Below, piece by piece: positions 1-19,118 of a stretch of 21,541 bases of DNA. Each line of letters starts with the position of its first letter. The first letter of the stretch is position 1. This DNA comes from a bacterium. GTDB taxonomy: Bacteria; Sysuimicrobiota; Sysuimicrobiia; Sysuimicrobiales; Humicultoraceae. The stretch lies in contig JBGQGY010000060.1 of assembly GCA_041497675.1 (NCBI GenBank), forward strand, positions 1 through 21,541, in the 5' to 3' direction. The translations under genes and the position numbers were made by a program. The notes below the pieces were generated by a model. That model was not told where the DNA came from. It searched no databases and worked only from the letters and a program-made list of their open reading frames with translations.

Positions 1-503
1 ACCATGGCTAGACAGGTCTCGGTAAACCCGCCGTGGTCGGGACCCAACTTCCACTCGGGCATCAAGGCGATCGCCAGACGATACCAGAGCGGAAACGCGA
101 AGAGCATCCCCAGTTCCTCGCGCAACTGGACCGCCACGCGGTTCATGACCGCCAGGTTCGTGCCGTGCCCCGTCAGCATGACGACGCGGCGGATACCCCA
201 CTTGTGCAGACAGCGCACGACGTCCTCGACGACGTGCCGGAGCGTCTCGTGGCCGATGGAAATCGTCCCCGGGAAATCCATCATGCCGTGAGCCCAGCCG
301 TAGGGCATGACCGGCGCCAGGATTACCCGGGCCTGCTCCGCAACTCTGCGGCTTACCTCCCATGCGGCCATCCAGTCGGTACCCAGCGGATTGTGGGGAC
401 CGTGGCTCTCGACCGCACCAAGCGGCAGAATGGCCGTGTCGGTTTCTTTGAATGCCGCCTCGGCCTCTTTCCAGCTCAGGGCGGCAAGCTCGCTCGTGCG
501 CAA
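1..503 (-). CDS. Creatininase / creatinine amidohydrolase family protein (partial, runs off the window start)
   Basis: Not in the ORF track because there is no stop in the window. Manual translation from TTG at 503, with SD GGAGGT at 514-509, gives MRTSELAALSWKEAEAAFKETDTAILPLGAVESHGPHNPLGTDWM...PYG...FPGTIS...LTGHGTN...DHGGFTETCLAM. This matches the family motifs GxxExHGPHxPxxTD, FPGTIS, (N)GHGxN and HxGxxET. Confidence 0.9.
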   Translation of the reverse strand, partial: MRTSELAALSWKEAEAAFKETDTAILPLGAVESHGPHNPLGTDWMAAWEVSRRVAEQARVILAPVMPYGWAHGMMDFPGTISIGHETLRHVVEDVVRCLHKWGIRRVVMLTGHGTNLAVMNRVAVQLREELGMLFAFPLWYRLAIALMPEWKLGPDHGGFTETCLAM

Positions 504-537
504 TCGACACCTCCATTGAAATGTTGTCAGCGACACT

Positions 538-1692
538 CTACCGGGAAATGCGTCGTTGCGCGAAGAACTCCACGACCCCGTCCGCCACCCGCTCCAGCAT
601 CTCAGACGTCATGTGTGGGCCGCCGGGCAGCGACAGGTTCTCCCGGCAGAGCCGCTCCGCCGTGGGGAATTGGCCGACCTTCGTGCCGTACCGCTCCCGC
701 ACGGGCTGCATGAGGTGGAGTGGCGCCGGGTAGTGGATGCTCGTCTCGATGCCGCGCCCACTCAGGTGCGCGCGCAGCGCGTCGCGATCAGGCGTCCAGA
801 CGACGTAGTGCAGGTACGACGGGTTCGCCCAGGGGCGCGCCGGCGGCAACTGAAGCGGTAGCCCGGCATCGCGGAAGCGCGCCGTGTAATAGGCGGCCGC
901 CGCCCGCCGCTTGGTCAGGAACTCGCCCAGCATCCGCAGCTGAATCCGCCCCAGGGCCGCGCAGATCTCGGTCAGGTGCATGTTGTATCCGATCCACTTC
1001 TGGTCGTACCACGACGCGTCGCGTCGCCGGATGAAACTGATGTCCTCGTCCCGCATCCGCCCTTGGTCGCGCAGGCTGGCAATGTCTTCGGCCAGCGCGC
1101 GATCGCTCGTCAACGCCGCGCCGCCGGGGCCAAAGACCGTGATCATCTTGCCGGAGAAGCTCAAGAATCCGACCAGCCCCAACCCGCCGACCGGGCGCCC
1201 TTTGTATTCGGCGCCCAGCGCGTGCGCCGCATCTTCGACCACTGCCAGCTTGCGCGTCGCCGCCGCCTCGTTGACCGCGTCCATGTCGCAGGGGAAGCCG
1301 TACGCGTGCATCGGGACCACCGCGCGGGTCCGCGGGGTCACCGCAGCCGATACGGCCGCCGGGATCAGGTTCGCCGTATCCGGCTCGGCCTCGACGAAGA
1401 CCGGTGTGGCTCCGGCCTTGACGACAGCGGCCAGGACACCGACGTACGCGTTGGCCGCCATGATGACCTCGTCGCCCTGCCCAACCCCGAGCGCGTCGAG
1501 CGCCAGCAGCATCGCGGACGTCCCCGAGTTGGTGGTGACCCCATACCGTGTTCCACACCATTGGGCGAGTTCGATCTCAAAGCGCTGTGTATCCTCGCCG
1601 CCGTATGAGATGCCGGTGTTGAGGACGGCGATGGCCTTCTCACGGATCTCGTCGGTGGCAATCATGGCGCGGTACGGAATCTTGGTCAGCAT
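538..1692 (-). CDS. DegT/DnrJ/EryC1/StrS family PLP-dependent aminotransferase
   Basis: 384 aa with motifs NSGTSA, GDEVI, GATPVFVE, HAYG, VEDAAHALGA, Schiff-base Lys in SFSGK, GYN, HYPxPLH and LSLP. Confidence 0.93.
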   Translation of the reverse strand: MLTKIPYRAMIATDEIREKAIAVLNTGISYGGEDTQRFEIELAQWCGTRYGVTTNSGTSAMLLALDALGVGQGDEVIMAANAYVGVLAAVVKAGATPVFVEAEPDTANLIPAAVSAAVTPRTRAVVPMHAYGFPCDMDAVNEAAATRKLAVVEDAAHALGAEYKGRPVGGLGLVGFLSFSGKMITVFGPGGAALTSDRALAEDIASLRDQGRMRDEDISFIRRRDASWYDQKWIGYNMHLTEICAALGRIQLRMLGEFLTKRRAAAAYYTARFRDAGLPLQLPPARPWANPSYLHYVVWTPDRDALRAHLSGRGIETSIHYPAPLHLMQPVRERYGTKVGQFPTAERLCRENLSLPGGPHMTSEMLERVADGVVEFFAQRRISR

Positions 1693-1812
1693 GTGGAGGC
1701 CTCAGCAGGGGGTCGACGACGACGAACCGAAATCAGTCGGTCGATTCCTTCTCTCAAATTCGTCGGGGCCGAAAACGCCTCCTCCACCACCCTCTATGAA
1801 GGGGCGCAGTTG

Positions 1813-2805
1813 ATGAACATCCTCGTGACCGGCGCGTGCGGGCGTATTGGATCGCATGTCGTCCGGCAACTGCTGGCGCGCGGGATCGATGTCGTGGGCA
1901 TCGACAGCGTCGTGCACGCAGGACACCTGGGCGAACTCAGCGGGCGCCTACCGCTGCGGACCGTGGACGTCCAGGATCTTGCCGGATTGCTGCGCGCCGT
2001 CACCGCCGAAAAGGTCCACCGCATCATCCATCTCGCGGCGGCCATCGGTGATCAGTACGACACGCAGCCTTGGGGGTCGTACCAGGTCAACTTGGGCGGC
2101 ACCCTCAACGTACTCGAGGCCGCCCGTCTTGCGGCCGTCGAGCGCGTCGTCGCGGCCAGTACGCACAACATCTACCCGAGGGCGTATGGCGTCTATGGCC
2201 CGCCAGAGTGGCGCCCGATCTCGGAGGATCATCCACCGGATCCCAGGCGGCCGTACGCCGTCATGAAGCTCGCCGGCGAGTACATGGGTCGGATCTATGC
2301 GGAGCAGATGAACGTCGATTTCGCCGCGGTGCGTTTTGCCAGCTACTACGGCGCCGAGCGCGCGATCCGGCGAGGGAACAAGTTCCCGGACCTGCTGAAC
2401 CGGTTCATCCTCGACGCCGTCGAAGGCGTGCCAACCGTCGTGGACCGCGGGGGCGACCAGGTCTTCGATCCCGTCTATATCAAGGACTGCGCCCACGGTG
2501 TGATCTGCGCGACGCTCGCCCCCGAACCTCGCGAAGGGCGTGTGTACAACATCGGCGGGGGCCGGCCCGTCTCGCTCCGCGCCTCCGCCGACGCAGTGGG
2601 GCGGGTGCTGCCGTCGGCGCGCATCCAGGTTGGCCCAGGTGTGGACGGTGCGCCCGGCGGCCAGGCCCACCATCCGCCGCTCGACATCACCCGCGCCAAA
2701 ACGGAGATCGGGTACGCGCCTCAATTCACGCTCGAACAGGGCATCGCCGATTGTGCCCGTGAGTTGACGGCGCTCCTGCGGGATCGCTCCGGCAAGTACG
2801 GGTAA
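1813..2805 (+). CDS. NAD-dependent epimerase/dehydratase family protein (extended SDR)
   Basis: Start moved to ATG 1813, which has a purine-rich SD GAAGGGG at 1798-1804 and begins MNILVTGACGRIG (GxxGxxG). Also IIHLAA, VNLGGTLNVLEAA, catalytic Ser in AAST, YAVMK (YxxxK), VYIKDCA and VYNIGGG. Confidence 0.92.
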   Translation: MNILVTGACGRIGSHVVRQLLARGIDVVGIDSVVHAGHLGELSGRLPLRTVDVQDLAGLLRAVTAEKVHRIIHLAAAIGDQYDTQPWGSYQVNLGGTLNVLEAARLAAVERVVAASTHNIYPRAYGVYGPPEWRPISEDHPPDPRRPYAVMKLAGEYMGRIYAEQMNVDFAAVRFASYYGAERAIRRGNKFPDLLNRFILDAVEGVPTVVDRGGDQVFDPVYIKDCAHGVICATLAPEPREGRVYNIGGGRPVSLRASADAVGRVLPSARIQVGPGVDGAPGGQAHHPPLDITRAKTEIGYAPQFTLEQGIADCARELTALLRDRSGKYG

Positions 2806-2819
2806 GCGGCGACTCGCCC

Positions 2820-3917
2820 TCAAACCCGAAAGAAGGCTGCGATCTGTTCGATGACGTAGTCCACTTCGGCGTCACCCAGCCCGGGATGGCAGGGAAGCGA
2901 AAGACACTCGCCACTCAGTGCCTCAGTAATCGGGAAGGCGCCCTGTCGGTAGGTCAGGCGATCGCGAAACGCCCGGTGAAGATACGCGGGCGGGTCGTAG
3001 TGGACGCGCGCGTCCACCCCGCGGTCCACCAGATGCTGGCGAAGCGCGTCACGATCAGACAACCGGACCACAAAGTGCAAATAGGAATGATTGGCGTACG
3101 GCCGCACCGCCTGCACGCGGACCGGCAGTCCCCGATTCGCGATGTGCTGCCGGTACCGCGCAGCGTTGGCGCGCCGACGGGCGTTCCAGCCTTCGAGCAG
3201 ACCCAACTGGAAATTCGCGACCGCGGCCACGAACTCGGTCAGCCGAAAATTGTAACCGAGCGCGTGGGTCTCGTATGAGCCCTGGCGGCCGTGGTACCGG
3301 CGGAGCGCGATGTCGGCGGCCATGTCCGCGTCGCGCGTGACCACGGCACCACCCACTCCACAGGCAGAGATTCCCTTGTTGCTGAAGGCGAAGATCCCAA
3401 TGTCTCCAAGGCCCCCAGCCGCGCGCGCATTGTAGTGCGCGCCGAGCGCGTGCGCTGCATCTTCGATGACCCGGACTCCGTGCCGGCCTGCCAGGCTTAG
3501 GAGCGGGTCCATGTCCACGGGATGACCGTACGTATGCTGTACGACCAGGGCGCGCGTCCGCGGGCTGATGCCCTCTTCCACCCGGCCGACGTCGATGTTG
3601 CCCGTGTCCTCCTCGACGTCGATCATGATGGGGATCCCGCCGAGCAACAGGACGGCCTCGGGTACCGCCGCATAGACGTTCGCCGGCATGACGATCTCGT
3701 CACCGGCGTTGATGCCGCACGCGTGCAGGGCAAGGAGGATGCCGGAACTCCCCGAACTGACCGCCACCGCATGGGGCACCTGGCAGAGGTTCGCAAGTTT
3801 GGCTTCCAGGGCCTTCGTGTACGGGCCAAAGTAGTGGATGCGGCCCTCGACGACGTCCTGGACGTCGCGCAGCAGCTCCGCGGGTACTGGATACGGAAAC
3901 ATATAGGAGATCTTCAT
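2820..3917 (-). CDS. DegT/DnrJ/EryC1/StrS family PLP-dependent aminotransferase
   Basis: Start moved to ATG 3917 (SD-like GAGGGG, avoids overlap with the permease), 365 aa. Motifs SSGSSG, GDEIVMP, HTYG, IEDAAHALGA, Lys in AFSNK, GYNFRL, HY and LSLP. Confidence 0.93.
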   Translation of the reverse strand: MKISYMFPYPVPAELLRDVQDVVEGRIHYFGPYTKALEAKLANLCQVPHAVAVSSGSSGILLALHACGINAGDEIVMPANVYAAVPEAVLLLGGIPIMIDVEEDTGNIDVGRVEEGISPRTRALVVQHTYGHPVDMDPLLSLAGRHGVRVIEDAAHALGAHYNARAAGGLGDIGIFAFSNKGISACGVGGAVVTRDADMAADIALRRYHGRQGSYETHALGYNFRLTEFVAAVANFQLGLLEGWNARRRANAARYRQHIANRGLPVRVQAVRPYANHSYLHFVVRLSDRDALRQHLVDRGVDARVHYDPPAYLHRAFRDRLTYRQGAFPITEALSGECLSLPCHPGLGDAEVDYVIEQIAAFFRV

Positions 3918-3921
3918 GCGC

Positions 3922-4773
3922 TCACGTCCCCTCAGCCCGGAGCCGAGGATCGAGCGCGTCCCGAAGCCCGTCACCAAAAAGGTTCAGGCCCAACACCAGC
4001 GCCATGATCGCAAGCCCCGGCACCAGCGACATCCAGGGCGCCAGCAGGAGGAACTTCTGGCCCTCCGCCACCATGCTGCCCCACGATGGAGCCGGTGGGC
4101 GGATGCCCAGGCCGAGGAAGCTCAGGCTCGCCTCCGACAGGATCGCGACGGAGACCCGCAATGACATCAGCACGATGAGCGCGGGCCAAACGTTTGGGAG
4201 CAGATGCCGCACGATGATCCTGAGATGGGAAGCACCCAGGCCGCGCGCGGCGTCGACGTAGTCGAACAGTTTGATCCGCAAGACCTCGCCACGGACGATG
4301 CGGCCAAACTGCGGGATATTGGCCACCCCAATGGCCACGACCAGATTGCCCACCCCCCGACCCAGCACCGCGACAAGTGTAATTGCCAGCAGGAGCGTGG
4401 GAAACGCCATCATGATGTCCATCGCGCGCATGAGGGCGTGGTCTGGCGCGCCGCCCGAATACCCGGCCGCAAACCCCACCAGCGAGCCGATCAGAGCGCC
4501 GATCACGATCGACGCCGCCGCAACGCCCAGCGAGACCCGGCTGCCCCAGACGATCCGGCTCAAGATATCCCGGCCAAAGTCGTCGGTTCCCAGCAGGTAC
4601 GGCTGGCCTGGCGGTTTCATGCGCCGGCTCAAGTCCTGATCCACGGGATCATGCGGCGCGAGCATGGGAGCCAGCAGGGCGACGGCGAGCACCCCAAACA
4701 CGACGGCGCCACCACACGCCGCGCTCCGGCGCCGCAGCAGGCCTCTGACGGCGCGGCCCCAGTCTCCGCGCAT
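3922..4773 (-). CDS. Peptide/nickel-type ABC transporter permease, DppC/OppC-like
   Basis: LGTDDFGRDILSR, GSRVSL, EAA-loop variant YVDAARGLGAS, RHLLPN, EASLSFLGLG, PSWG and GDGLRDALDPR. Confidence 0.95.
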   Translation of the reverse strand: MRGDWGRAVRGLLRRRSAACGGAVVFGVLAVALLAPMLAPHDPVDQDLSRRMKPPGQPYLLGTDDFGRDILSRIVWGSRVSLGVAAASIVIGALIGSLVGFAAGYSGGAPDHALMRAMDIMMAFPTLLLAITLVAVLGRGVGNLVVAIGVANIPQFGRIVRGEVLRIKLFDYVDAARGLGASHLRIIVRHLLPNVWPALIVLMSLRVSVAILSEASLSFLGLGIRPPAPSWGSMVAEGQKFLLLAPWMSLVPGLAIMALVLGLNLFGDGLRDALDPRLRAEGT

Positions 4774-4775
4774 CT

Positions 4776-5726
4776 CTAGCTGAACTTCATACGCGGGTCG
4801 ATCGCCGCGTACGCCAGGTCGGTCAGAAAGTTGACGAAGATGACACCGGCCGCAAAAAGCATGACGCAGCCCTGCACCACAGGGTAGTCACGGTTGAAGA
4901 CCGCGTCGATCATCGTCTTCCCTAGGCCGGGCCGAGCGAACACCGTTTCGATGATCACCGTCCCGCCGACCAGATAGGCGAGATCGAGCCCGATCACGGT
5001 CACGATCGGCATCGCGGCGTTGCGGAGGCCGTGCCGGTACACCACCAGCCGCTCCGAAAGACCCTTGGCGCGGGCTGTCCGAATGTAGTCCTGACCCAAC
5101 ACTTCCAGCGTCGCCGATCGGCTCATGCGGGCCAGCAGCGCAGCGGAGCGTGCGCCGATAGCAACGGACGGCAGGATCAGGTAATAGAGTTCGACCGGCA
5201 GGTTGCCTGGAGGTCCGCCCCCAAACATGGGCAGGACCGGCACCTTGTAGGCCAGCAGGTAGATCAGCAGGATGCTGAACCAAAAGCTCGGCGCGGACAG
5301 CCAGACCACGGCCAGCGTCATCACACCGTAGTCGAGCGACGTGTTGCGGTGCAGTGCCGCTGCGACGCCCGCCGGCACGCCGATGAGCACGGCCAGGCTC
5401 ACACCGCAGGCCGCCAGCATCAGTGTCGGCCGAAGATGCGGTGTGATCACACTGACAACCGGACGGTTGTTCAGCAGCGAGAAGCCAAGGTCGCCCTGAA
5501 GGATCTTGCGAAGATAGTACAGGTATTGAACGGCGATCGGCTTATCGAGCCCGTAGTCACGCTTGATGGCCTCGATCGTCGCCTTGGGGGTGATATCCTT
5601 GAAGTCGCCGAGAATAATGTCGATGGGTGTTCCCGGGGCCAGGCGGATGACAACAAACACCAGGGTGACCGCGCCCACGAGCGCGGGCGCTACCAAGAAG
5701 AACCGTTTGATCAGGAAGGCGAGCAA
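4776..5726 (-). CDS. Peptide/nickel-type ABC transporter permease, DppB/OppB-like
   Basis: GLDKP..VQY, GDLGFS, PSFW, DYIRTARAKGL, HGLRNA, ETVFARPGLG, RDYPVVQG and DPR. TTG start. Confidence 0.95.
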   Translation of the reverse strand: MLAFLIKRFFLVAPALVGAVTLVFVVIRLAPGTPIDIILGDFKDITPKATIEAIKRDYGLDKPIAVQYLYYLRKILQGDLGFSLLNNRPVVSVITPHLRPTLMLAACGVSLAVLIGVPAGVAAALHRNTSLDYGVMTLAVVWLSAPSFWFSILLIYLLAYKVPVLPMFGGGPPGNLPVELYYLILPSVAIGARSAALLARMSRSATLEVLGQDYIRTARAKGLSERLVVYRHGLRNAAMPIVTVIGLDLAYLVGGTVIIETVFARPGLGKTMIDAVFNRDYPVVQGCVMLFAAGVIFVNFLTDLAYAAIDPRMKFS

Positions 5727-5738
5727 TATCCGCAGCGC

Positions 5739-7292
5739 CTACTGGGTGATATCCATCAGCTCCCAGTACCACAGCCAATAGTGCGTGTTTGGCACGTCCC
5801 CCGTCACACCTTTGCGGAACGCGGTCACGTAGTAGGGCCGGTAGACCGGGATGATGGGCAGCTCGCTCGAGATCCGCAGCTGGATCTGCCGCAGGATGGT
5901 CTTCCGCTTCTCAGGGTCGACTTCCCGGCGCTGGGCACGGATGAGACTGTCGATACGGCCGTAGAAATTGGGCACCGAGTCCGACTGCAGCGGGAGCAGG
6001 AACTGGTCAGGCGCGATGCGGGTCGGTCCGGTGATGAGGAAATCAAAGTCCCCTGAGTCGCGCCGCGCTCCGTAGGGCGCGTTGCCAAGTTCGTCGAGGG
6101 TCACCGGTATGCCGGCCTTGGTCCAGTATCCTCGGACGGCCTGGGCGAACGACCGGTCTACCGCCCGGAACACGAGCACCAGCGGCCGCATGCCGCCGGC
6201 GAGCCCGGCCTCGGCCAGCAACGCCCGGGCGCGTTCTGGATTGTACGGGAACGACGGCGCGTCATCGATGTGGCCAAACACGCCGGGCGGGATTTCGCTC
6301 CACATCCCCTCGACCGTGCCCATCCCCTCCTCGACGGTGTCGACGAGCTCCTTTTGATTGATGGCATGCGAGAGCGCGCGGCGCAACCGCACGTCGGTGA
6401 GCGGGGGGCGCTGCGTATTGGCCCACAGGCTTCGCCGACCCAGGGTCGGCGTCGCCGTATACGCGAGCCGGGGGTCGTTGCGAATCAACTTGAAGGCCTC
6501 TGCCGTACGAATCGGAGCGTAGTCCAGTTCGCCCTTGCTCATGGCGAGCGCGATCACGGTCTCTTCGGGGATAATCTTGAAGACGACGCGGTCGATATGC
6601 GAACGGCTGCCCGCCCGGCGCGCACCGGCCCGGAACGTCCCGAAGTACTCGGGGTGCGTCGCAAAGACGATCTCCTGCCGCGGAGAGAACCGATCCAGCA
6701 TGTATGGCCCGGTGCCGATCGCCGCGGTGGCGCCAAACTGCGCACCAAACTGATCCACCGCCTTCTGGCTAACGATGTAGCCCGGCCTGAACGCCAGGAC
6801 GGCCGGCAGAAAGTCGGCGTAGGGCTCGATCAAGTGTAGCCGGACCTGGTAATCGTCGACGATCTCGATCTCGCGGATCAACTTCATCAGGGGCGCGTAT
6901 GGCGAGCGCAGCCGTGGATCTGCTACGCGTTCGAACGAGAACTTCACATCGCGCGCGGTGAAATCGCCAAACCCCTTGTGGAACTTGACGCCTTTCCGCA
7001 GCCAGAAGGTGTACGTCAGTCCGTCTTTGGACACGTCGTAGCGCTCGGCCAGATCGGGCTCGACCTCTAGCCCGTTGGGCTTGTACCGGACCAGGCCGTT
7101 GTACATGTTCATGGCCAGCGGATAGTCGGGCATCTGGGTGATCCTGGGCGGGTCTAGCGTCGTGAAGTCCGCCGTGTAGCCCATCCTAAGAATCTTCTCG
7201 CCGGTGGTTTGCGCCAGCGGAGCGCCGGCCGGCACCAACACCAGCAGAACAACGGCCACCAGGCTCAATCGGCGCCGGAGATCGTTCCGCAT
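5739..7292 (-). CDS. ABC transporter substrate-binding protein, family 5 (DppA/OppA-like)
   Basis: ATG 7292 is preceded by SD GAGGGAGG at 7308-7301 (alternative start 7310). Sec-type signal peptide ending APLA-Q, TLDP, PDLAE, YTFWLRKGVKFH, FTARDVKFSF, GTGPY, DVRLRRALSHAI and YNPERARALLAEAG. Confidence 0.95.
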   Translation of the reverse strand: MRNDLRRRLSLVAVVLLVLVPAGAPLAQTTGEKILRMGYTADFTTLDPPRITQMPDYPLAMNMYNGLVRYKPNGLEVEPDLAERYDVSKDGLTYTFWLRKGVKFHKGFGDFTARDVKFSFERVADPRLRSPYAPLMKLIREIEIVDDYQVRLHLIEPYADFLPAVLAFRPGYIVSQKAVDQFGAQFGATAAIGTGPYMLDRFSPRQEIVFATHPEYFGTFRAGARRAGSRSHIDRVVFKIIPEETVIALAMSKGELDYAPIRTAEAFKLIRNDPRLAYTATPTLGRRSLWANTQRPPLTDVRLRRALSHAINQKELVDTVEEGMGTVEGMWSEIPPGVFGHIDDAPSFPYNPERARALLAEAGLAGGMRPLVLVFRAVDRSFAQAVRGYWTKAGIPVTLDELGNAPYGARRDSGDFDFLITGPTRIAPDQFLLPLQSDSVPNFYGRIDSLIRAQRREVDPEKRKTILRQIQLRISSELPIIPVYRPYYVTAFRKGVTGDVPNTHYWLWYWELMDITQ

Positions 7293-7321
7293 CCGTCCCG
7301 CCTCCCTCATGCTTGGGCCTC

Positions 7322-7713
7322 CTATTGCGCGCGCACGACCGCGGCGCCAAAGAACGTCCTGATGTGTCCCGCAACCCGGTGGATGTCGTCCTCGGACACG
7401 TGCGGGGCAACAGGCAGAGAAAGCACCCGCTCGCAGAACCGCTCGGCCGAAGGCGCCGTGCCCCGTTTGAACCCGAACCGACTCGCGAAAGCGGCGTGAA
7501 GGTGGATCGGCAGCGGGTAGTGCATTTTCGCCTCAACGCCCTTGCTCACCAGATAGTCCCGAAGGCTCTCGCGCGCATCGGTGCGGATGCGAGCCCTACT
7601 TCGAGCGCGCGCGTATGCGGCCCAAGGTAGTGAATGTTGTCATCCATCACCTGCAGGGCCTGTTGTTTGACGTTGTCAGGAACGACGTACCGGTGGAAAT
7701 ACTGCAACCACAT
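7322..7713 (-). pseudogene. DegT-family aminotransferase pseudogene with a large out-of-frame internal deletion
   Basis: ATG 7713 reads MWLQYFHRYVVPDNVKQQALQVMDDNIHYLGPHTRALEVGLA, colinear with residues 1-42 of the 2820-3917 paralogue. At about 7588-7590 the sequence continues in another frame as IRTDARESLRDYLVSKGVEAKMHYPLPIHLH...LSLP...FF, matching paralogue residues ~284 to the end. The first frame stops at TGA 7548-7546. Confidence 0.88.
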
Positions 7714-7815
7714 CCAGGTCACCCGTCACGGATCGTTGGTGGACCCGTGCAACGGCGGCATTCCATTTGCGCCAAGTGATTCCTGCTACATCTCGTGGCA
7801 AGCTAAAAGGGATTC

Positions 7816-7831
7816 TCGAACGGGTTTTCGA
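7816..7831. promoter_or_regulatory. Imperfect palindrome TCGAACGGGTTTTCGA in a divergent intergenic region (candidate operator, LexA-box-like)
   Basis: Inverted repeat TCGAA-N6-TTCGA between the divergent starts at 7713 and 7876. It is one mismatch from TCGAAC-N4-GTTCGA. Confidence 0.3.
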
Positions 7832-7875
7832 AATTGTTCACTGCCGTGTCTTCGTGGAAGAAACGTCAGGAGCGC

Positions 7876-9138
7876 ATGCGTGCGTCGGCGGCCTCGCCGT
7901 GGCTTTCCGAGTGGGCCCGGCGCTCGCTCCTCCTCGATTATGAGAATGAAGACCTTCCCAGCCCAGTCCTGAACTCGCACCGGATGGCCGACATCGGCGC
8001 CGGGTTGGACGGCGTCGTGAACCTGTCGGCCGGCGGGCAGATTCACCGCCAGCCGCCCGGCTTTGTCGTCGACGCCGTGCGCCGTGCCGTCGACGAAGGA
8101 CGCTTTCACTACCCCGGGGTCCGGGGCGACGCGGATCTGCGCGCGGCGCTGGCCGAAAAGCTCGCGCGCGACAACGGCATCATCGCCGACCCCGCCTCCG
8201 ACATCCTGCCGACCATCGGCGCGCAATTCCCGATCGACGGGACGCTGCGCATTTTGGTGAACCCCGGTGACGACGTGTTGCTGATCGATCCCGAGTACGC
8301 GTCGCTGGAACCGGTCATCAGGCTGTACGGCGGCCACGTGATCCCGGTGCCCCTCCACGACACTCCGTCGGGCTGGGTGTTCGATCCCGACGACCTGCGG
8401 CGCCGCATCACCCGCCGGACGAAGCTCTTCTGCTTCTCCAACGGCAACAACCCCACCGGGTATCTGTACACGCGCGGCGACCTTGACGCGATCGCCGGTC
8501 TGGCCCGCGAGCACGACTTCTTCGTCTTCTCCGACGAAGAGTACGAAAAGCTCGTGTTCGACGGGCGGCCGCACCACAGCATGGCGGCCGTGCCGGGGAT
8601 GGCTGAGCGCACCGTGACGGCGTTTTCGTTCTCAAAAGCGTACTGTCTGTCCGGGCTGCGCATCGGATACATGGTGGGCCCGGCGGCGATTATGGACCAC
8701 ATGTACAATGTGATCCGCTTCAGCATCCAGGCAGTCGGGGCGCTGGGGATGCGCGCGGCGCTCGCGACGCTGCGCGGCCCGTCGGAGCCCTGGCTGCGCG
8801 AGACCGTAGCTGACCTCCAGGCCGACCGCGACTATGCCGCCGCCCGGCTGAACGCCATGCCTGGCGTGCGGGTCCATCCTCCGATCGGATGTTACTTCCT
8901 CTATTGCCGCGTCGACGCGGGTGGCCTGCCCTCGTGGAAACTGGCGGAGTACCTGCTCACGGAGGCACGCATCTCGGTCATCAGCGGGCACCAGTTTGGG
9001 CGGTCGGGACGATCGTATCTTCGGATCAGTGGGTGTGTGGGACGGGAGCGGCTGGAGGAAGGACTGAATCGGATGGAGCAAGCGCTGGCGCGCCTGTCCA
9101 CACAGGCGCCGGCGCCATCAACGGCACGGTCCAGTTGA
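7876..9138 (+). CDS. PLP-dependent aminotransferase class I/II (AspC-like)
   Basis: LRAALAEKL, NPGDDVL, NNPTG, SDEEY, SFSKAYCLSGLRIG (PLP Lys) and YLRIS. ATG 7876 follows AGGAG with only a 3-nt spacer, so the start is uncertain. Confidence 0.92.
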   Translation: MRASAASPWLSEWARRSLLLDYENEDLPSPVLNSHRMADIGAGLDGVVNLSAGGQIHRQPPGFVVDAVRRAVDEGRFHYPGVRGDADLRAALAEKLARDNGIIADPASDILPTIGAQFPIDGTLRILVNPGDDVLLIDPEYASLEPVIRLYGGHVIPVPLHDTPSGWVFDPDDLRRRITRRTKLFCFSNGNNPTGYLYTRGDLDAIAGLAREHDFFVFSDEEYEKLVFDGRPHHSMAAVPGMAERTVTAFSFSKAYCLSGLRIGYMVGPAAIMDHMYNVIRFSIQAVGALGMRAALATLRGPSEPWLRETVADLQADRDYAAARLNAMPGVRVHPPIGCYFLYCRVDAGGLPSWKLAEYLLTEARISVISGHQFGRSGRSYLRISGCVGRERLEEGLNRMEQALARLSTQAPAPSTARSS

Positions 9139-9159
9139 CAACAGGTGACAGGAGGCGCA

Positions 9160-9894
9160 ATGGCTGAACAGGAACGAGTGTTGGTCGTGAGCGCGCACGC
9201 GGCAGATTTCTGCATCCGCGCGGGGGGGACGTTGTCGCGTTACGTGGCGGCGAAAGCGCCTGTCAGGGTCCTGGTGCTGAGCCCGGGCGCGCGCGGCGAG
9301 TCGAACGAACTGTGGCGCGCCAAGGGCGGCAAGACGACCGAAGCCGAAGTCGCCGCCGTGCGGCATAAAGAGGCCGAGGCCGCCGCCGCGATCCTGGGCG
9401 TCGAGGTGGCCTTCTTCGGGATTCCGGACCAGCCCCTGACGATCAATCGCGAGCGCCTGATGGGTCTCGTCAGACAGTTGCGCCAGTTCAGACCCACGAT
9501 CGTGCTGACACACCCGCGCAAGGAACCGTACAACCCCGATCACAGCGCCGCGTGTCTCGCCGCCATCGACGCCGCCTACTACGCGACGCTCGCCGGGGTC
9601 GAACCCGACCTGCCGGTCGTGCCGCCGGTGCAAATCCTGGCGTTCGAGCCGACGCAGCCGATGGCCGAGGTGGCGGAGTTCGTGCCCGACACCTACGTCG
9701 ACATCACCGACGTCATGGACACCAAGATGCGCGCGGTCGCCGAGTACAAGACCCAGCCGTACCACGTCGATCGCTACCGCGCCCGGGCCGTCGCCCGCGG
9801 AACGCAGGCCGCGTATCTCACGGGGAATACCGCCATCCAGTATGCTGAGGCGTTTCAACGCTACACCCCGTGGATTGGCAGGAACCTGCCGTGA
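9160..9894 (+). CDS. PIG-L/LmbE-family metalloenzyme, GalB (4-oxalomesaconate hydratase)-like subgroup
   Basis: SD GGAGG at 9151-9155 and ATG at 9160. Motifs LVVSAHAADF (HxxD), RAGG, GARGES..LW, EAEAAAAILG, PYNPDH, FEPTQP, PDTYVDIT and YAEAF. It resembles GalB-type proteins as I recall them rather than canonical HPDD deacetylases. Confidence 0.88.
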   Translation: MAEQERVLVVSAHAADFCIRAGGTLSRYVAAKAPVRVLVLSPGARGESNELWRAKGGKTTEAEVAAVRHKEAEAAAAILGVEVAFFGIPDQPLTINRERLMGLVRQLRQFRPTIVLTHPRKEPYNPDHSAACLAAIDAAYYATLAGVEPDLPVVPPVQILAFEPTQPMAEVAEFVPDTYVDITDVMDTKMRAVAEYKTQPYHVDRYRARAVARGTQAAYLTGNTAIQYAEAFQRYTPWIGRNLP

Positions 9895-11099
9895 GCCTGT
9901 CAGACCATTTTATCCCCACGCGTCTTCGGGATTTCAGACCGCGCGACAGCGGCGGCGGCGAGCGGGTCAGGCTGCAGAATCTGGCACGGGGATTGAAGGA
10001 CGTCATCAATCTGAACTCCGGGGATCCGGACCTCACCGCGGCGCCCGTCGCCGTCGAAGCCGCCGTCGATGCGCTGCGCGCGGGTAAGACGCACTACGCG
10101 CACGGCGGCCTCCCGGAGCTGCGCGCGGCGATCGCCCGCAAGTGCGCCTCGGAGAACGGCTATCTCGTCGATCCCGAGACGCAGCTCATCATCACCAACG
10201 GCAGCGCCGAGGCCGCGTCGGCGATCTTCCAGACACTACTCGAAGCCGGCGATGAAGTCCTCACCACCGATCCCTACTACAGCGGGCACGTCTCGGCCAT
10301 CATCGCCGCCCGCGGGGTGCCGGTGTTCGTGCCGACGCGAGGCGAGGACCTGTGGGAACCCGATCCGGCGGAGGTCGAGCGACGCATCACGCCGCGCACG
10401 AAGGCGTTCATCTTCGCCAACCCAGGCAATCCCACGGCGGTGGTGTGCCGCCGCGAGACCCTCGAGGCGCTGGTGGACATCGCCAACCGCAGGAATATTC
10501 TGATGATTCCGGATGAGTTGTTCGAACGATACGTCTACGACGGCCGGCGTCACGTGAGCATGGCGTCGCTGCCGGGCGCCCAGGATCGAGTCATCACGGT
10601 CAACGGTTTCTCCAAATCCTACTGCATGACCGGGTGGCGTCTGGGGTGGATCGCCGCGCCGGCGTGGCTGGCCGAGCCGGTGGCGAACATGCGCTACGCG
10701 CTGTCGATGGTCGCCGGGACGCCGAACCAGTGGGGCGCGATCGCGGCGCTGTCTGACGCCGCGCGCCCCTACTACGACGAGGTGTACCGGACGTACGGCG
10801 AGCGCCGCGCGTACTTCTACAACGCGCTCACGCAGATGGGATTGCCGCAGCGTCCCACGCCGGGCGCGTTCGTGGGGATGGTGGACATCCGCCCGACACG
10901 GCGAAGCGGGTCAGAGGTGTCCGAACGGTTCTTGCGCGACGCCCGCGTATTCATCTGGCCCGGCACGGCCTTCGGCTCGTGCGGCGAAGGCTACCTGCGC
11001 GTCGGTCTGATCAAGCCGATCGAGGTCTTGAAGGACATGATGCGGCGGATCGAACCGGTGGTCGCCGGTCTGCTCGCGAGCGTCCCCAGCCCCAGGTAG
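9891..11099 (+). CDS. PLP-dependent aminotransferase class I/II (AspC-like)
   Basis: GTG start overlaps the upstream TGA (GTGA, 9891-9894). INLNSGDPD, THY..GLPELRAAIA, NPGNPT, DELF, NGFSKSYCMTGWRLG, PGTAFG and GEGYLR. Confidence 0.93.
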   Translation: MSLSDHFIPTRLRDFRPRDSGGGERVRLQNLARGLKDVINLNSGDPDLTAAPVAVEAAVDALRAGKTHYAHGGLPELRAAIARKCASENGYLVDPETQLIITNGSAEAASAIFQTLLEAGDEVLTTDPYYSGHVSAIIAARGVPVFVPTRGEDLWEPDPAEVERRITPRTKAFIFANPGNPTAVVCRRETLEALVDIANRRNILMIPDELFERYVYDGRRHVSMASLPGAQDRVITVNGFSKSYCMTGWRLGWIAAPAWLAEPVANMRYALSMVAGTPNQWGAIAALSDAARPYYDEVYRTYGERRAYFYNALTQMGLPQRPTPGAFVGMVDIRPTRRSGSEVSERFLRDARVFIWPGTAFGSCGEGYLRVGLIKPIEVLKDMMRRIEPVVAGLLASVPSPR

Positions 11100-11102
11100 C
11101 AG

Positions 11103-12476
11103 ATGCAGGATATCTATCGATACATCGACGAGCACCGCGATGAGATCCTCGCCGACTTCTTCACGTTTCTGCGCCAACCCAGCATCTCGGCGCAGAAGAT
11201 CGGGCTTGACGAGTGCTGCGACCTGCTGGTGCGTCTCATGGCCAAAGATGGGCTGCCGGTGCGGAAGATGCCGGTCGAGGGCGGCCCGCCCATCGTCTTT
11301 TCGGACATCCGGGCGAAGCGCAGCGCGAAGACGCTGTTGTGCTACGCGCACTACGACGTCCAGCCGGTCGAGCCGCTCGATCTGTGGGTGTCGCCGCCGT
11401 TTGAGCCCACGATCCGCGATGGGGTCATCTTTGCCCGCGGGGCCACCGACAACAAGTCGGGGGCGCTCGCCTTTTGGAAGGCCGCGCAGGCGTTCAAGGC
11501 CGTCCGCGGCGACGTGCCCTGCCACCTCAAGTTCGTCATCGAAGGCGAGGAGGAGATGGGGAGCCCCCACTTCCTCCCCTGGGTCGAGCAGAACGCGGCG
11601 ATGCTGGCCTGCGACGCATCGACCTGTCTGGACGGGCCGGCCGACCACTCGAACAAACTGCCGGCCATCAAGTTGGGGGTCAAAGCGATCCTCTACGTCG
11701 AGTTGCGGCTGAGGATGAACGAGAAAGACGTCTGGTCGGGCTACGCCGGCTGGGTGCCCAGCCCCGTGTGGCGGATGCACAAGCTGCTGTCGACGATGCT
11801 CGATCCCGAGACCGGCCGCATCCTGATCGACGGGTGGTACGATGACCTGCTGCCGATCGAGCCCGACGATGAGGAACTGCTCCGTCAATCGTTTCCCAGG
11901 TTCGATGAGGCCGAAACCAAACGCGAACTCGGTATCACACAGTTTGCCTGGGGCATGGACGCGTGGGAGGCCGTGAAGCGACGACACTACGGGCCGACCG
12001 CAAACATCTGCGGGATCGTGGCCGGCTACACGGGCGAGGGCGGGAAGACGATCATCCCCAACGAGATCAAGGTCAAGATGGACTTCCGTTGCCCGCCGAA
12101 TCTCGAACCCGCCAAGCAGTTGGAGAAACTCCGCGCGCACCTCGGAAAGCATGGTTTCGATGAGGTCGAATTGATCGTGCACACCGCGCGGGCCAACCCG
12201 TACAAGACGTCGCCGCGCGAGCCGATCGCTCAGGCCGTCATCCGCGCCGCCGACCAAGTCTTTGGGGGCATGCCAACGGTCTACGGTATCTCGACGAACG
12301 GGCTGATCAAGGTGCACGTGCCGCATCCCGCAGTGCTCGCGGGGTTCGCGGACCCCGACTGCCGGCTACACGCGCCGAACGAGAACATGCCGGTGGACCG
12401 GCTCTTCAAGGGGATCAAGTTCGCGGCGACAATCATGGAAGAGTACGCGAAGACGGTCGGGCAGGCCGGACCATGA
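11103..12476 (+). CDS. M20/M25/M40 family metallo-hydrolase (dipeptidase/deacylase-like), metal ligands intact
   Basis: YAHYDVQP, W.SPPFEP, ARGATDNK, EGEEEMGSP, CLDG and LHAPNEN. Confidence 0.94.
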   Translation: MQDIYRYIDEHRDEILADFFTFLRQPSISAQKIGLDECCDLLVRLMAKDGLPVRKMPVEGGPPIVFSDIRAKRSAKTLLCYAHYDVQPVEPLDLWVSPPFEPTIRDGVIFARGATDNKSGALAFWKAAQAFKAVRGDVPCHLKFVIEGEEEMGSPHFLPWVEQNAAMLACDASTCLDGPADHSNKLPAIKLGVKAILYVELRLRMNEKDVWSGYAGWVPSPVWRMHKLLSTMLDPETGRILIDGWYDDLLPIEPDDEELLRQSFPRFDEAETKRELGITQFAWGMDAWEAVKRRHYGPTANICGIVAGYTGEGGKTIIPNEIKVKMDFRCPPNLEPAKQLEKLRAHLGKHGFDEVELIVHTARANPYKTSPREPIAQAVIRAADQVFGGMPTVYGISTNGLIKVHVPHPAVLAGFADPDCRLHAPNENMPVDRLFKGIKFAATIMEEYAKTVGQAGP

Positions 12477-14646: not shown

Positions 14647-15549
14647 CTACGATAGATTTCGAAGACGGGGGTCGAGCGTGTCCCGCAGCGCGTCCCCCAA
14701 CACGTTGATCGACAGCACCGTCAGCATCAGGGCCAGCCCGGGAAACGTGACCAGCCACCAGGCGCGCTCGATGTACGTCCGTCCCTCGCTCAGCATGCCC
14801 CCCCACGACGGCACGGAGGGCGGGATCCCCAAGCCTAAGAACGACAACGACGCCTCGGCAATGATCACGCCGGCCACCGAGAAGCTGGCGATGACGATCA
14901 CCGGCGCCATGGCATTGGGCAGGATGTGCCGCACCAGGATGCGCGGCGTCGACGCGCCGATCGTCCGCGCCGCTTCAACGAACTCGGTCTCACGCAACCC
15001 CAGCACCTGCGCGCGGGTGAGCCGGCAGTACTGCGCCCAACCTGTGAGACCGAGCACCAGGATGACCTTGCTCAACCCCGGCCCGAGCACGGCCAGGATG
15101 GCGATGGCCAATAAGATGAAGGGAAACGCCAGCTCGAAGTCGGCCAGCCGCATGATCACGTCGTCGACGAGCCCGCCGTAGTAGCCCGCGACGAGCCCCA
15201 GGCTGACGCCCACGACGCCTGAGACGGCCACGGCCGAGACACCGACTAGCAGGGACACCCGCGCGCCATACGCCAGACGGCTCAGCAGATCGCGCCCCAG
15301 GTGATCCGTGCCGAGCATGTGCTCGGCGCTCCCACCGGCCGCCCACACGGGCGGTAGGAGGCGATTCTTGATATCGAGTCCCGCCGGGCTCTGGTGGGTG
15401 ATCAGCGGCGCCCCCACCGCGATCACGACAACCAGCGTGAGGATGCCCGCGCCGAGAAGCGCGCCGGCGGCGCGGGCACCGGTGACCGGGCCGAGGCGCA
15501 GGCGGTGCCGCTGGGGGAGCGCCGATGCCGAGGCCGAGGCCGCCGCCAC
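14647..15549 (-). CDS. Peptide/nickel-type ABC transporter permease, DppC/OppC-like
   Basis: HMLGTDHLGRDLLSRL.YGARVSL, EFVEAARTIGAS, RHILPN, EASLSFLGLG, PSWG and GDALRDTLDPR. Confidence 0.95.
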   Translation of the reverse strand: MAAASASASALPQRHRLRLGPVTGARAAGALLGAGILTLVVVIAVGAPLITHQSPAGLDIKNRLLPPVWAAGGSAEHMLGTDHLGRDLLSRLAYGARVSLLVGVSAVAVSGVVGVSLGLVAGYYGGLVDDVIMRLADFELAFPFILLAIAILAVLGPGLSKVILVLGLTGWAQYCRLTRAQVLGLRETEFVEAARTIGASTPRILVRHILPNAMAPVIVIASFSVAGVIIAEASLSFLGLGIPPSVPSWGGMLSEGRTYIERAWWLVTFPGLALMLTVLSINVLGDALRDTLDPRLRNLS

Positions 15550-15558
15550 CCGTCGTCT

Positions 15559-16485
15559 CTACTGGTACCGGATTCTCGGGTTCAACGTCGCGTAGAGCAG
15601 GTCGACCAGCAGGTTCACGCCCACGAAGGTCACGGCCAGCATCGTCACGCCGGCCTGCACCACCGGAAAGTCCTTGTTGCCGATGGCCTGGATCAGCGCG
15701 CGGCCCACGCCGGGCCAGGCGAAGATCGTCTCCACGATCACCGACCCGCCGAGCAAGAATCCCAACTGCAACCCGATCACCGTCACGACGGGGATCAACG
15801 CGTTGCGCAGCGCATGCCGGTAGACGACGCCGAGCTCGGGGACCCCCTTCGCGCGGGCAGTGCGGACGTACTCCTGGTGCATCACTTCGAGCACGGATGA
15901 ACGCGTCAGCCGTGCGTTGCGTGCCATCGGAAACGCCGCGAGCGTGATGCCGGGGAGCACCAGGTGGAGCCACGTCCCGCGCCCCGAGATCGGCAGCAGG
16001 TGCAGGTAGACGCCGAAGAGCATGATGAGGACGATCCCCAGCCAGAAACTGGGCACCGACTGTCCCAAGAGCGCAAGCAGCATCGCGCCGGCGTCGACCA
16101 CGCTGCCGCGGCGTGTCGCCGAGATCACGCCGAGCGGCACGCCGAGCCCCACGGAGAGCGCGAAGGCCACCGCGCCGAGCTGCACGGTGGCCGGGACGCG
16201 CTCCCAGATGACTTCAAACGCCGGACGGTGGTGCCGGAGCGATTCGCCGAAGTCGCCGCGCGCGGCGTGGGTGAGAAACCCCAGATACTGCACCAGCCAG
16301 GGACGGTCGAACCCCCGCGCCCGCCGGAACTCCTCGATCTGCTGTTGGCTCATGACGTCGGCGGCCGAACCCAGCAGCAGTTCGGTCGGATCGCCGGTGA
16401 GAAACAGCAGCGCAAAGGACGCTACGCTCACCATCAGCACGACGACCAGCATCTGTGCGAGTCGCCGGGTCAGATACGCGGGCAT
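15559..16485 (-). CDS. Peptide/nickel-type ABC transporter permease, DppB/OppB-like
   Basis: GDP, GFDRP..VQY, GDFGES, PSFWLG, EYVRTARAKG, HALRNALIPV, ETIFAWPGVG and DFPVVQ. Confidence 0.95.
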   Translation of the reverse strand: MPAYLTRRLAQMLVVVLMVSVASFALLFLTGDPTELLLGSAADVMSQQQIEEFRRARGFDRPWLVQYLGFLTHAARGDFGESLRHHRPAFEVIWERVPATVQLGAVAFALSVGLGVPLGVISATRRGSVVDAGAMLLALLGQSVPSFWLGIVLIMLFGVYLHLLPISGRGTWLHLVLPGITLAAFPMARNARLTRSSVLEVMHQEYVRTARAKGVPELGVVYRHALRNALIPVVTVIGLQLGFLLGGSVIVETIFAWPGVGRALIQAIGNKDFPVVQAGVTMLAVTFVGVNLLVDLLYATLNPRIRYQ

Positions 16486-16523
16486 GGCACCGTGCGATCA
16501 TGCCGTGCCGACGCGCGGCCGGA

Positions 16524-18116: not shown

Positions 18117-18150
18117 GGGGTCTCCCTCCAATTCACGCTTTGGGGGGAGT

Positions 18151-19035
18151 TCACGGCCGGGCGGGCAAACCCTGCAGGTGCACGCGCACGGCGTCGGCCA
18201 CGTAGAGCAATTCGTCCAAACCCAGGTCGGGATGACAAGGCAACGCGACGGTGCGCGAGTAGAACCTCCGAGCCCCCGGCCAGGCGGTGTCTGGGCCCGC
18301 CTCCAACGCGTTCGAAAGTCGCGTGTCAAGCGCCCGGCGAGCTTCGACGCCCTTTTGCGCGAGGGCATGGATCAGCGCCCCCGCATCCTGCGTCTGCACC
18401 AGATACGTCGAATACGTCGGCGAGGTCTCGGGGAACGGCGCCACCACCGACATCGGCAGACCCAGCGGCCGGAAGGCGCTGTCGTAGACACCGGCCGCGG
18501 TGCGGCAGGCGTCGATGCGATCGTCGAGGTCGGTCGCGTCGGCTTCGAGTGCTCCCCAGGGTGCGACCGCAACGCCATCACGCGTGGGGCCCTCCGGCGC
18601 GAGCGGTACGAGACCGGCGGTCTGCAGCCGCGCGGCCACGTCGGCGCTATCGGTGGACACCAACGCGCCGCGGGTACGGTCAAACGGCCACGCGCCCAGC
18701 ACCATCACGGCCGCGCGTCCCAACGATCCGACGGCGCGCCCCCTCACGGCGCCGCCAACCGCGCCGGTGGTGTCTTCGAGGACGATCCATCCGTTCGAGG
18801 TCCGCGGCGGCGGCATCGGCCGGCCAAAGCGGTGATCGAGAATGCACACGGTCCGAGTGTCTCGAGAAGATGCGAGATCCTCGGGCCAGATCGGGGCGCC
18901 GCTGACGGGGTCGAGATCGATCGCGACGAGTCGCGCGCCGGCGGTCAGGATCGCGCGTTCCAGATGTTCCGGCGCTCCAACGGGGACGTGGACGAGATCG
19001 CGGGGGCCGATATCAAGGACTTCCAACACGGCCAC
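18151..19035 (-). CDS. Degenerate DegT/DnrJ/EryC1/StrS-family protein lacking the Schiff-base lysine
   Basis: IGPRDLVHVP, AGARLVAID, HRFG, VLED, GRAVGSLG, G.LVSTD and VALPCHPDL align with the DegT paralogues in the window, but there is no Lys in the active-site loop. Similarity extends in frame upstream of GTG 19035 to about 19113. Confidence 0.8.
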   Translation of the reverse strand: MAVLEVLDIGPRDLVHVPVGAPEHLERAILTAGARLVAIDLDPVSGAPIWPEDLASSRDTRTVCILDHRFGRPMPPPRTSNGWIVLEDTTGAVGGAVRGRAVGSLGRAAVMVLGAWPFDRTRGALVSTDSADVAARLQTAGLVPLAPEGPTRDGVAVAPWGALEADATDLDDRIDACRTAAGVYDSAFRPLGLPMSVVAPFPETSPTYSTYLVQTQDAGALIHALAQKGVEARRALDTRLSNALEAGPDTAWPGARRFYSRTVALPCHPDLGLDELLYVADAVRVHLQGLPARP

Positions 19036-19118
19036 CCAGGCGTCTTTGGCGGCCGAAGCCCACCAGATCCACCGACAGCCAAAGACGGCGTTAAGGCGAC
19101 GGCTCAGTTCGATGCGGG

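Follow-up and report, generated by a model that had tools for sequence, protein, structure and literature searches.

The window analysed here (the whole stretch of 21,541 nucleotides) is the entire contig C60 of a Sysuimicrobiota genome (3.97 Mb, 66% GC, 272 contigs). In its left part, genes for DegT-family aminotransferases lie among those for a family-5 importer, amide hydrolases, an extended short-chain dehydrogenase/reductase (SDR), two class I aminotransferases (AT1 and AT2) and an enzyme of the PIG-L fold. We read this island as a probable catabolic cluster of importer, hydrolases and transaminases in which the transaminases belong to a distinct and expanded DegT subfamily. The genes were confirmed by open reading frame (ORF) listing, Pfam and NCBIfam, and starts were refined with a purpose-made hexamer gene caller, which was used for all loci (Table 1). 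All genes listed by a first-pass annotation of the sequence were found in their places, and so were its two divergent gaps and the importer flanked on the same strand by DegT2 and a broken DegT3. The left end is open because the window is a whole contig, and no contig joining it was found.

The DegT subfamily and the genes of the window

The PF01041 scores were 334 and 323 bits (gathering threshold 19.8). The AF2 model of DegT1 had a pLDDT of 93, and Foldseek aligned it to DesV/7b0d with a TM of about 0.9. The catalytic set was kept (K182, D154, G57-T58 and S178), and the Lys was invariant in 15 aligned paralogues. In a 90-row tree (IQ-TREE quick search, limited outgroup), the island DegTs formed one clade of 47 rows with an SH-aLRT of 98, which splits into orthologous groups that each span families. 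The polysaccharide DegTs of the same genome (C13, C2) fell outside this clade. In 38 of the 47 rows, one residue was missing in the specificity loop before the catalytic Lys: DegT1, 2, 3, B, C and D have S-x3-K, and only A1 and A2 keep the canonical S-x4-K. The acidic residue of G-[DE]-G-G was lost in most island paralogues. From a profile search of 1.84 billion representatives, the top 150 proteins gave 155 domains, 31 of which grouped with the island DegTs (FastTree 98); in this set, which is enriched by the query, the short loop occurred in 24 of the 31 domains and in none of the 124 outside. The best score on the equivalog models of nucleoside diphosphate (NDP)-sugar enzymes (PseC, ArnB, WecE, LegC, DesI) was 226 bits, against cut-offs of 375-650.

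C3 and C4 nucleotide-sugar aminotransferases differ at the loop before the catalytic Lys (bioRxiv 10.1101/2021.09.04.459008). In Pcryo_0638, the loop residue Gln183 (between Ser180 and Lys185) holds the acetamido group of the sugar (PMC8040287). Since the pyridoxal phosphate (PLP) ligands and the fold are intact and the loop is changed, the island DegTs are predicted to be PLP transaminases with a remodelled substrate pocket.

DesV (2oga), QdtB (3frk), WbpE and Archaeoglobus 7b0d have the same fold (TM about 0.9), PLP ligands and catalytic Lys at 30-40% identity. Compared with them, the island enzymes have a loop one residue shorter and have mostly lost the acid of G-[DE]-G-G; they lie in no glycosyltransferase or NTP-transferase context and number 5-7 paralogues per locus. 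That DegTs may use substrates without a nucleotide, or substrates that are not sugars, and may pair with a lysine-less subunit is known from BtrR/RbmB (2c7t, 5w70), NtdA/KabA (4k2b), Fic25/Vzb9 (8gyh) and Ser4/Ser5; Fic25 and Vzb9 are DegT-family enzymes that act on an open-chain amino acid and not on a sugar (PMC11726168; bioRxiv 10.1101/2021.09.04.459008). The free-substrate enzymes were matched with E values of 1e-40 to 1e-32, compared with 1e-67 for DesV. They are all biosynthetic, and the pathway partners of BtrR/RbmB/NtdA (DOI synthase, glycosyltransferases, phosphatase) are absent from the island.

Table 1. Features of the window, with positions, strand and supporting match
Feature	Position	Strand	Basis or remark
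Creatininase-family metallo-amidohydrolase	3..503	-	PF02633 E=3e-48; 3' end lost at the contig boundary; start at 536 also possible
DegT1, PLP aminotransferase, short loop SFSGK(182)	538..1692	-	PF01041 E=1e-99
Divergent intergenic region DegT1/SDR	1693..1812	.	sequence
Extended SDR, YxxxK kept, without NDP-binding Arg/Asn/RxGD	1813..2805	+	PF01370; one of 1-4 island paralogues
DegT2, short loop AFSNK	2820..3917	-	PF01041 E=3e-96
OppC-type permease	3922..4773	-	PF00528/PF12911
OppB-type permease	4776..5726	-	PF00528/PF19300
Family-5 solute-binding protein SBP1	5739..7292	-	PF00496 E=1e-80
DegT3 pseudogene remnant	7322..7713	-	N- and C-terminal pieces in different frames
Divergent intergenic gap DegT3 remnant/AT1	7714..7875		
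Conserved 24-bp element upstream of AT1, candidate operator/promoter element	7809..7832	+	
Class I aminotransferase AT1	7876..9138	+	PF00155
PIG-L-fold Zn enzyme, GalB-hydratase-like	9160..9894	+	HAAD; Thr at GalB His164 position
Class I aminotransferase AT2	9891..11099	+	PF00155
M20 dipeptidase-like amidohydrolase, metal ligands intact	11103..12476	+	PF01546
Second family-5 importer (SBP2 and two permeases)	14647..18116	-	probable island satellite
DegT4, lysine-less degenerate DegT-fold protein	18151..19035	-	PF01041, C-terminal part only; sits between M20b and SBP2
M20b, M20-fold protein without usual His/Asp metal ligands, conserved	19119..20582	-	

Recurrence of the island and its partner enzymes

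DegT1 orthologues (65-80% identity) were found in 20 of 94 phylum genomes, from five of seven families, and a pattern-based GTDB scan gave 17 DegT1-type loci before identity dropped to 40% or less. The PIG-L gene occurred in 23 of the 94 genomes, including all 20 DegT1-positive ones. DegT_A also occurred in 20, of which 19 were common with DegT1. When the count was limited to the 31 genomes that have 50 or more binding-protein candidates, 19 carried both DegT1 and PIG-L, two PIG-L only, ten neither and none DegT1 only. Kin genomes are not independent, and these co-occurrence counts carry no p-value.

In the genome G001, the 12 genes of the window are all present in the same order, and DegT3 is intact. 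G011 carries 10 of the 12, followed by about 31 kb more, with a 2-hydroxyacid dehydrogenase, hydantoinase A/B, an MFS transporter, an amidase, a further importer, three more DegTs, an alpha/beta hydrolase and DegT_D. In the window's own genome, the extension genes lie on a chain of contigs with overlapping ends (C206-C261-C157-C117-C70; overlaps of 141 bp exact or about 300 bp at 95-99%), which is linked to the window by synteny only. The boundary first proposed, 1-12476, is therefore too narrow: the island continues on other contigs and probably also into the right half of the window.

Orthologues were counted over 19 relative stretches (cut-off at least 52%; three stretches shorter than 8 kb; self-matches included). 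The 2-hydroxyacid dehydrogenase and DegT_A1 were each present in 15 stretches, PIG-L, HydA and HydB in 14 and the amidase in 13. DegT_C, DegT_A2 and the asparaginase-like protein followed with 11 each, and IclR, a classical SDR and DegT2 with 10 each. A family-5 binding protein was present in all 16 longer stretches, and well-assembled islands held 5-7 DegT paralogues. DegT1 remained a direct or near neighbour of the PIG-L gene in family f4 and G034 despite reshuffling. Some versions contain an MFS gene, and other cassettes are inserted in G001 and beside the G000 piece on C70. Neighbouring genes were annotated from a single member of each protein cluster, to which most of the longer unassigned ORFs were added. 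Among the neighbours so annotated, no glycosyltransferase, nucleotidyltransferase, flippase, kinase, glycosidase, radical SAM enzyme or cyclase was conserved; for glycosyltransferases and nucleotidyltransferases, this covers the 16 longer stretches. This agrees with the non-polysaccharide context claimed at first, and the predicted association of importer, amide hydrolase and DegT also recurs in the orthologue neighbourhoods of relatives.

In the genome itself, family-5 binding proteins gave 115 matches (99 with 400 aa or more), besides 17 creatininase-like and 18 M20-like genes; of its 3,684 non-importer genes, 14% have an importer gene no more than three genes away. Because the genome is saturated with importer parts, importer adjacency alone is weak evidence. 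Nine of its 13 near-full-length DegTs lie within four genes of an importer; three of the remaining four sit among glycosyltransferases (C13, C2) and provide internal controls. The orthologue-level synteny across families is not chance-like. An SBP2 orthologue was found in eight of the 94 genomes, seven of them DegT1-positive, and DegT4 in six, all DegT1-positive; since both are nested in DegT1-positive genomes, they are unusable as independent co-occurrence controls.

A smaller arrangement was found in metagenome loci. P0120 (683 aa, from a 48-member cluster) is an island-clade DegT fused to a C-N hydrolase, which is annotated as N-carbamoylputrescine amidase or beta-ureidopropionase. A P0120 match at more than 60% was present in 15 of the 17 metagenome loci retrieved. 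The longer fusion loci (L119-L133) encode a binding protein, two permeases and the fusion, followed in five by a second DegT and an isochorismatase. On the other side of a divergent gap, there is an AstE/AspA deacylase gene together with an orthologue of AT1 (54%). With this query, the C-N hydrolase domain was not found in the 94 phylum genomes, and when plasmids were searched with DegT_A1, AT1, SBP1 and the fusion protein, no cultured organism turned out to carry a close relative. The hydrolase-DegT fusion is the smallest version of the system, and its domains indicate that it would couple amide or carbamoyl removal to an island-type transaminase in one chain.

The PIG-L enzyme had been proposed as a de-acylase. 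The protein matched GalB (5cgz) at E=2e-42 and deacetylases at E values of 2e-15 or higher. Its own clade extends down to 59% identity, followed by a gap to 49% or less. The H-P-D-D motif of deacetylases was not found: HAAD was present in 22 of 23 full copies and HPAD in one (overlapping loci counted twice). We take the Asp of H-P-D-D to be the general base of the deacetylases. In the alignment with 5cgz, the Zn ligands, Ala at the base position and the catalytic Glu were kept, and EPTQP, in 27 of 27 copies read, places Thr at the position of GalB His164. The roles of GalB residues, including His164, were reportedly worked out by Mazurkewich in 2016. Because of the Ala at the base position and the Thr at the His164 position, the protein is unlikely to be a de-acylase and is not a plain GalB. 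The de-acylase assignment is not supported, since the deacetylase base is missing and the closest relative is a hydratase. GalB, the 4-oxalomesaconate (CHM) hydratase of Pseudomonas putida, has the PIG-L fold, the H-x-A-D + H Zn ligands and the conserved Glu in common with it at about 40% identity. Unlike the two plasmid GalB contexts checked, the island has no dioxygenase or GalC/RraA aldolase.

The extended SDR and its paralogues kept YxxxK, and in 14 of 14 aligned copies they lacked the Arg (xRD), Asn and RxGD of solved epimerases. In NDP-sugar epimerases, these residues serve in NDP binding, the Arg at the phosphates. The SDR scored 93 bits on the GalE model (cut-off 262). None of its four checked plasmid relatives (33-35%) had a glycosyltransferase nearby, and three lay in importer operons; a 58% orthologue is named from Truepera. 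Another island SDR, SDRc, scored best on the gluconate 5-dehydrogenase model, below its cut-off. The closest solved relatives of AT1 were archaeal aromatic/aspartate aminotransferases. In the asparaginase-like protein, all 17 copies examined (duplicates included) have Gly or Ala in place of the HGTDT Asp, as would suit an enzyme whose amide substrate is not asparagine.

The truncated creatininase-family protein of the window scored below the cut-offs for creatininase (90/235 bits), MftE (100/172) and IolN (56/245), and its full-length orthologue was also far below those for creatininase and MftE. Its metal ligands were kept, and identity to G001, G011 and G042 was 86-90%. The gene is not counted as core because it lies on only 3 of the 19 stretches. 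An IolN-type ring hydrolysis of a diketocyclitol, such as the dione that would arise from streptamine deaminated twice, was considered and rejected on the same count.

Two arrangements beside the hydrolases were also seen. In L046-L054 of family f4, a protein of 67-78 aa without a Pfam match directly follows the amidase; small subunits accompany amidases likewise in GatCA/AtzEG-type systems. In G012 (L145:2509-3874), nitrile hydratase alpha and beta genes lie between the M20 gene and the SBP2 permeases.

Proposed catabolism and alternative explanations

The island very probably serves uptake and catabolism as such. The direction first proposed was catabolic, and neither a conserved glycosyltransferase or NTP transferase nor a loss of synteny was found in the relatives. 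The explanation we favour, at about even odds, is that the compounds are amide- or ureide-linked amino compounds with an amino-polyol part, be it an amino sugar, an aminocyclitol or an amino alcohol with an open chain. In the proposed scheme, the conjugate would enter through family-5 binding proteins served by ATPases from other loci of the genome. Hydrolases (creatininase-family, M20, amidase, hydantoinase A/B, isochorismatase and asparaginase-like) would cut its amide, lactam and carbamoyl bonds. The DegT paralogues could then form a panel, each member for a different position or stereoisomer, that deaminates free, non-nucleotide substrates, and the extended SDRs may reduce or oxidise the resulting keto or hydroxy centres. 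A second arm (AT1, the GalB-like Zn enzyme, AT2, the 2-hydroxyacid dehydrogenase and sometimes an HpcH aldolase) would convert the released amino-acid-like part to a 2-oxo acid, which would be hydrated and then reduced or cleaved. As candidate substrates, cell-surface glycans might supply N-acyl amino sugars or glycopeptides; open-chain aminopolyols and products of the aminocyclitol or streptothricin type are further candidates.

A bolder form of this scheme, which we regard as unlikely in full, is that the whole DegT subfamily has been reversed for catabolism and enlarged to a panel of deaminases, specific for position and stereochemistry, that dismantles amino-sugar or aminocyclitol conjugates with no glycosidase or kinase. 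The conjugates might be glycan-derived N-acyl amino sugars or aminoglycoside/streptothricin-like products, and some DegTs might form hetero-oligomers with lysine-less partners. Deamination would give a keto group, elimination would break the linkage, and the GalB-like Zn enzyme, with its new active site, would hydrate or cleave the enone.

Several observations weigh against the proposed uptake and catabolism of amino-polyol conjugates. Only a few of the 19 stretches carry orthologues of SBP1 (2), the creatininase-family protein (3), M20 (3), AT1 (4), AT2 (4) and this SDR (4); further copies of these rarer genes lie on other contigs. Gene order and importer identity vary between relatives, and the lineage is rich in such cassettes. 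The PDB relatives of SBP1 are only distant (HbpA/DppA, 6tfq, AapF, AgaA). Among solved DegTs, the NDP-sugar C3 enzymes DesV and QdtB come closest, and not the free-substrate enzymes BtrR, RbmB and NtdA. In G026, a nucleotidyl- and a sugar transferase are encoded some 5 kb away from one DegT_C copy, and lone glycosyltransferases stand at distances of 5 kb and 18 kb from two islands. The core has no kinase, glycosidase or conserved aldolase, which leaves the carbon of a sugar without an explained route. The PIG-L gene was found without DegT1 in three of 23 genomes. In G047 (L140/L141, C1:53200-62700), it lies in a DegT-free operon with an importer, an AstE/AspA deacylase, two class I aminotransferases and an HpcH aldolase. 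This gene set therefore suggests that the PIG-L arm would lead from an amino acid to a 2-oxo acid, followed by hydration and aldol cleavage or reduction.

Part of this evidence would also fit a catabolic island with no sugar at all, to which we give a minor but real chance. The enzymes of the DegT clade would then be adapted to hydroxy-diamino acids (DADH-like), ureides or N-heterocycles after ring opening, and the island as a whole would degrade a nitrogen compound with a lactam or ureide group. Lactam, carbamoyl and amide hydrolases dominate the island, kinase and glycosidase are missing, the GalB-like and asparaginase-like enzymes have altered catalytic residues, and Fic25/Vzb9 have an open-chain amino acid as their substrate (PMC11726168). 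However, parallel DegT and extended-SDR paralogues seem to fit a set of polyhydroxy stereoisomers better, and the DegTs retain an overall C3-aminotransferase-like sequence and fold. Within uptake and catabolism, we consider a carbohydrate-like substrate clearly, though not overwhelmingly, more probable than a non-sugar one; the preference goes no further because Fic25/Vzb9 use open-chain amino acids and the island is without kinases and glycosidases. It is improbable that the island is a mosaic of at least two independent cassettes (DegT/SDR and AT-hydratase-M20) with different substrates, gathered in a transporter-rich region. The 99 full-length family-5 binding proteins and the 17 creatininase-like and 18 M20-like genes of the genome, the reshuffled order between families, the other cassettes inserted in G001 and beside the G000 piece on C70 and the three genomes with PIG-L and no DegT1 would suit such a mosaic, but DegT1 always occurs with PIG-L (20 of 20), the two are near neighbours in f4 and G034, and the core set recurs in five families.

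To our knowledge, all characterised DegTs are biosynthetic, and aminoglycoside clusters include creatininase- and PIG-L-family proteins. The island could then make a small aminated metabolite (aminocyclitol or aminopolyol), with importers for re-uptake of precursor or product and DegT hetero-oligomers. Some versions do carry an MFS gene, and Ser4/Ser5 are a precedent for a lysine-less partner (PMC11726168). But a cyclase, transketolase/AmCP set, radical SAM enzyme, methyltransferase, ligase or glycosyltransferase is conserved in no version, hydrolases dominate, and IclR/GntR regulators together with binding-protein importers fit uptake, so that we hold biosynthesis for very improbable. Almost negligible is the chance that DegT and epimerase genes were displaced from a polysaccharide locus and act on NDP-sugars for glycans whose synthesis is encoded elsewhere. 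By Pfam family and automatic name they count as NDP-sugar enzymes, and the DegT_C copy of G026 lies near sugar transferases; yet all NDP-sugar equivalog models scored far below cut-off, the loop deletion occurred in 0 of the 124 domains that fall outside the clade, residues for NDP binding are missing from the SDR, and separate canonical DegTs sit in glycosyltransferase clusters of the same genome.

Importers coupled to the catabolism of cyclitols or sugar-amino-acid conjugates are known from Thermotoga IolG/M/N/O, rhizopine moc and the agropinic/mannopinic acid systems of Agrobacterium, and IolN belongs to the creatininase family. We know of no DegT enzyme in the Iol, moc or agropinic/mannopinic pathways. 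Family-5 opine binding proteins are among the distant PDB matches of SBP1. The conserved island core is without Gfo/Idh/MocA and TIM-barrel isomerase. No description of a catabolic DegT cluster was found in the literature searched, which covered subscription papers in part, and the main texts of the lineage papers checked do not mention 'aminotransferase' or 'amino sugar'. If true, the catabolism proposed here would be, as far as found, the first catabolic role for DegT-family enzymes. It would also name a distinct subfamily that is now mislabelled in databases as dTDP-amino-sugar transaminases. The gene set would be a testable one for the mining of organic nitrogen from unusual amino compounds by an abundant uncultured lineage of soil, sediment and hot springs. 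A free-substrate, stereo-diverse panel of amino-polyol transaminases and the altered GalB-like enzyme would be biocatalyst leads. An island without a substrate is a strong lead, not a pathway.

Importers, regulation and degenerate DegT genes

The window importer consists of a binding protein and two permeases, as in the family-5 (Opp/Dpp) pattern. No ABC ATPase gene was found in the window, and 11 OppD/F-like genes lie elsewhere in the genome, compared with 99 full-length family-5 binding proteins. The region 14647-20582 is probably a satellite of the island in this family, because SBP2 and DegT4 fall within the DegT-positive set and SBP2 adjoins the AT1-PIG-L-AT2-M20 block in G012. Between the two parts, at 12734-14604, an EamA transporter and a MarR-GNAT fusion follow the M20 gene; they are kept in G002 and absent from the other stretches, and they are probably not core.

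The 24-bp element upstream of AT1 is kept in five genomes of the family. A leave-own-out matrix ranked it first in the genome (30.6 bits; next 20.1; column-shuffled maxima 17-23), and none of the genome's other island promoters has it. When an operator common to the whole island was sought by Gibbs sampling, the score was 13.5, only slightly above the shuffles (11.2-11.6). No conserved motif was found in the DegT1/SDR gap, and sigma-70 and terminator scans stayed at chance level.

One of the three DegT genes first listed had been called broken, and this was borne out. Compared with the intact gene of G001, the DegT3 remnant has lost about 739 nt (codons about 43-288, including Lys181), with the junction at 7588/7589, and the kept parts have 77-79% DNA identity. 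Four runs were compared at this site: contigs of X2 and X13 cross it in the deleted form, one contig of X20 carries 733 extra letters, and the contig of X5 ends there. Since X2 and X13 span the deletion and X20 has the insert, the break is a recent strain-level loss and not an assembly error.

The DegT3 remnant and DegT4 both failed a check of the catalytic residues. DegT4 is 37-48% identical to its relatives, and the Lys was missing in all six aligned copies or pieces. Ser4, of the SerTA pair Ser4/Ser5, is a precedent for a lysine-less DegT serving as a partner subunit (PMC11726168). M20b is 60-76% identical to four relatives. DegT4 and M20b (18151-20582) are thus adjacent conserved degenerate enzymes, with a gene for a family-5 binding protein on either side. 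In one genome (L046:14336-15478), DegT_A2 is directly followed by another type of DegT-fold gene that lacks the Lys.

Other DegT arrangements were also seen. P0091, P0092, P0101, P0104 and P0106, all profile matches of 770-880 aa, have two tandem canonical DegT domains. In L112 (G000 C22:22300-35700), a convergent DegT pair lies beside an importer with Gfo, SDR, M24, Ldh2 and aminotransferases. In L113 (C12:28800-41350), a DegT lies beside an importer, after two Mo-hydroxylase subunits and with an AIR-synthase-like gene. L114 (G000 C55:899-7038) contains LacI, a TIM-barrel isomerase, two Gfo/Idh/MocA, a family-5 binding protein and a canonical-loop DegT outside the island clade, which is another non-polysaccharide DegT.

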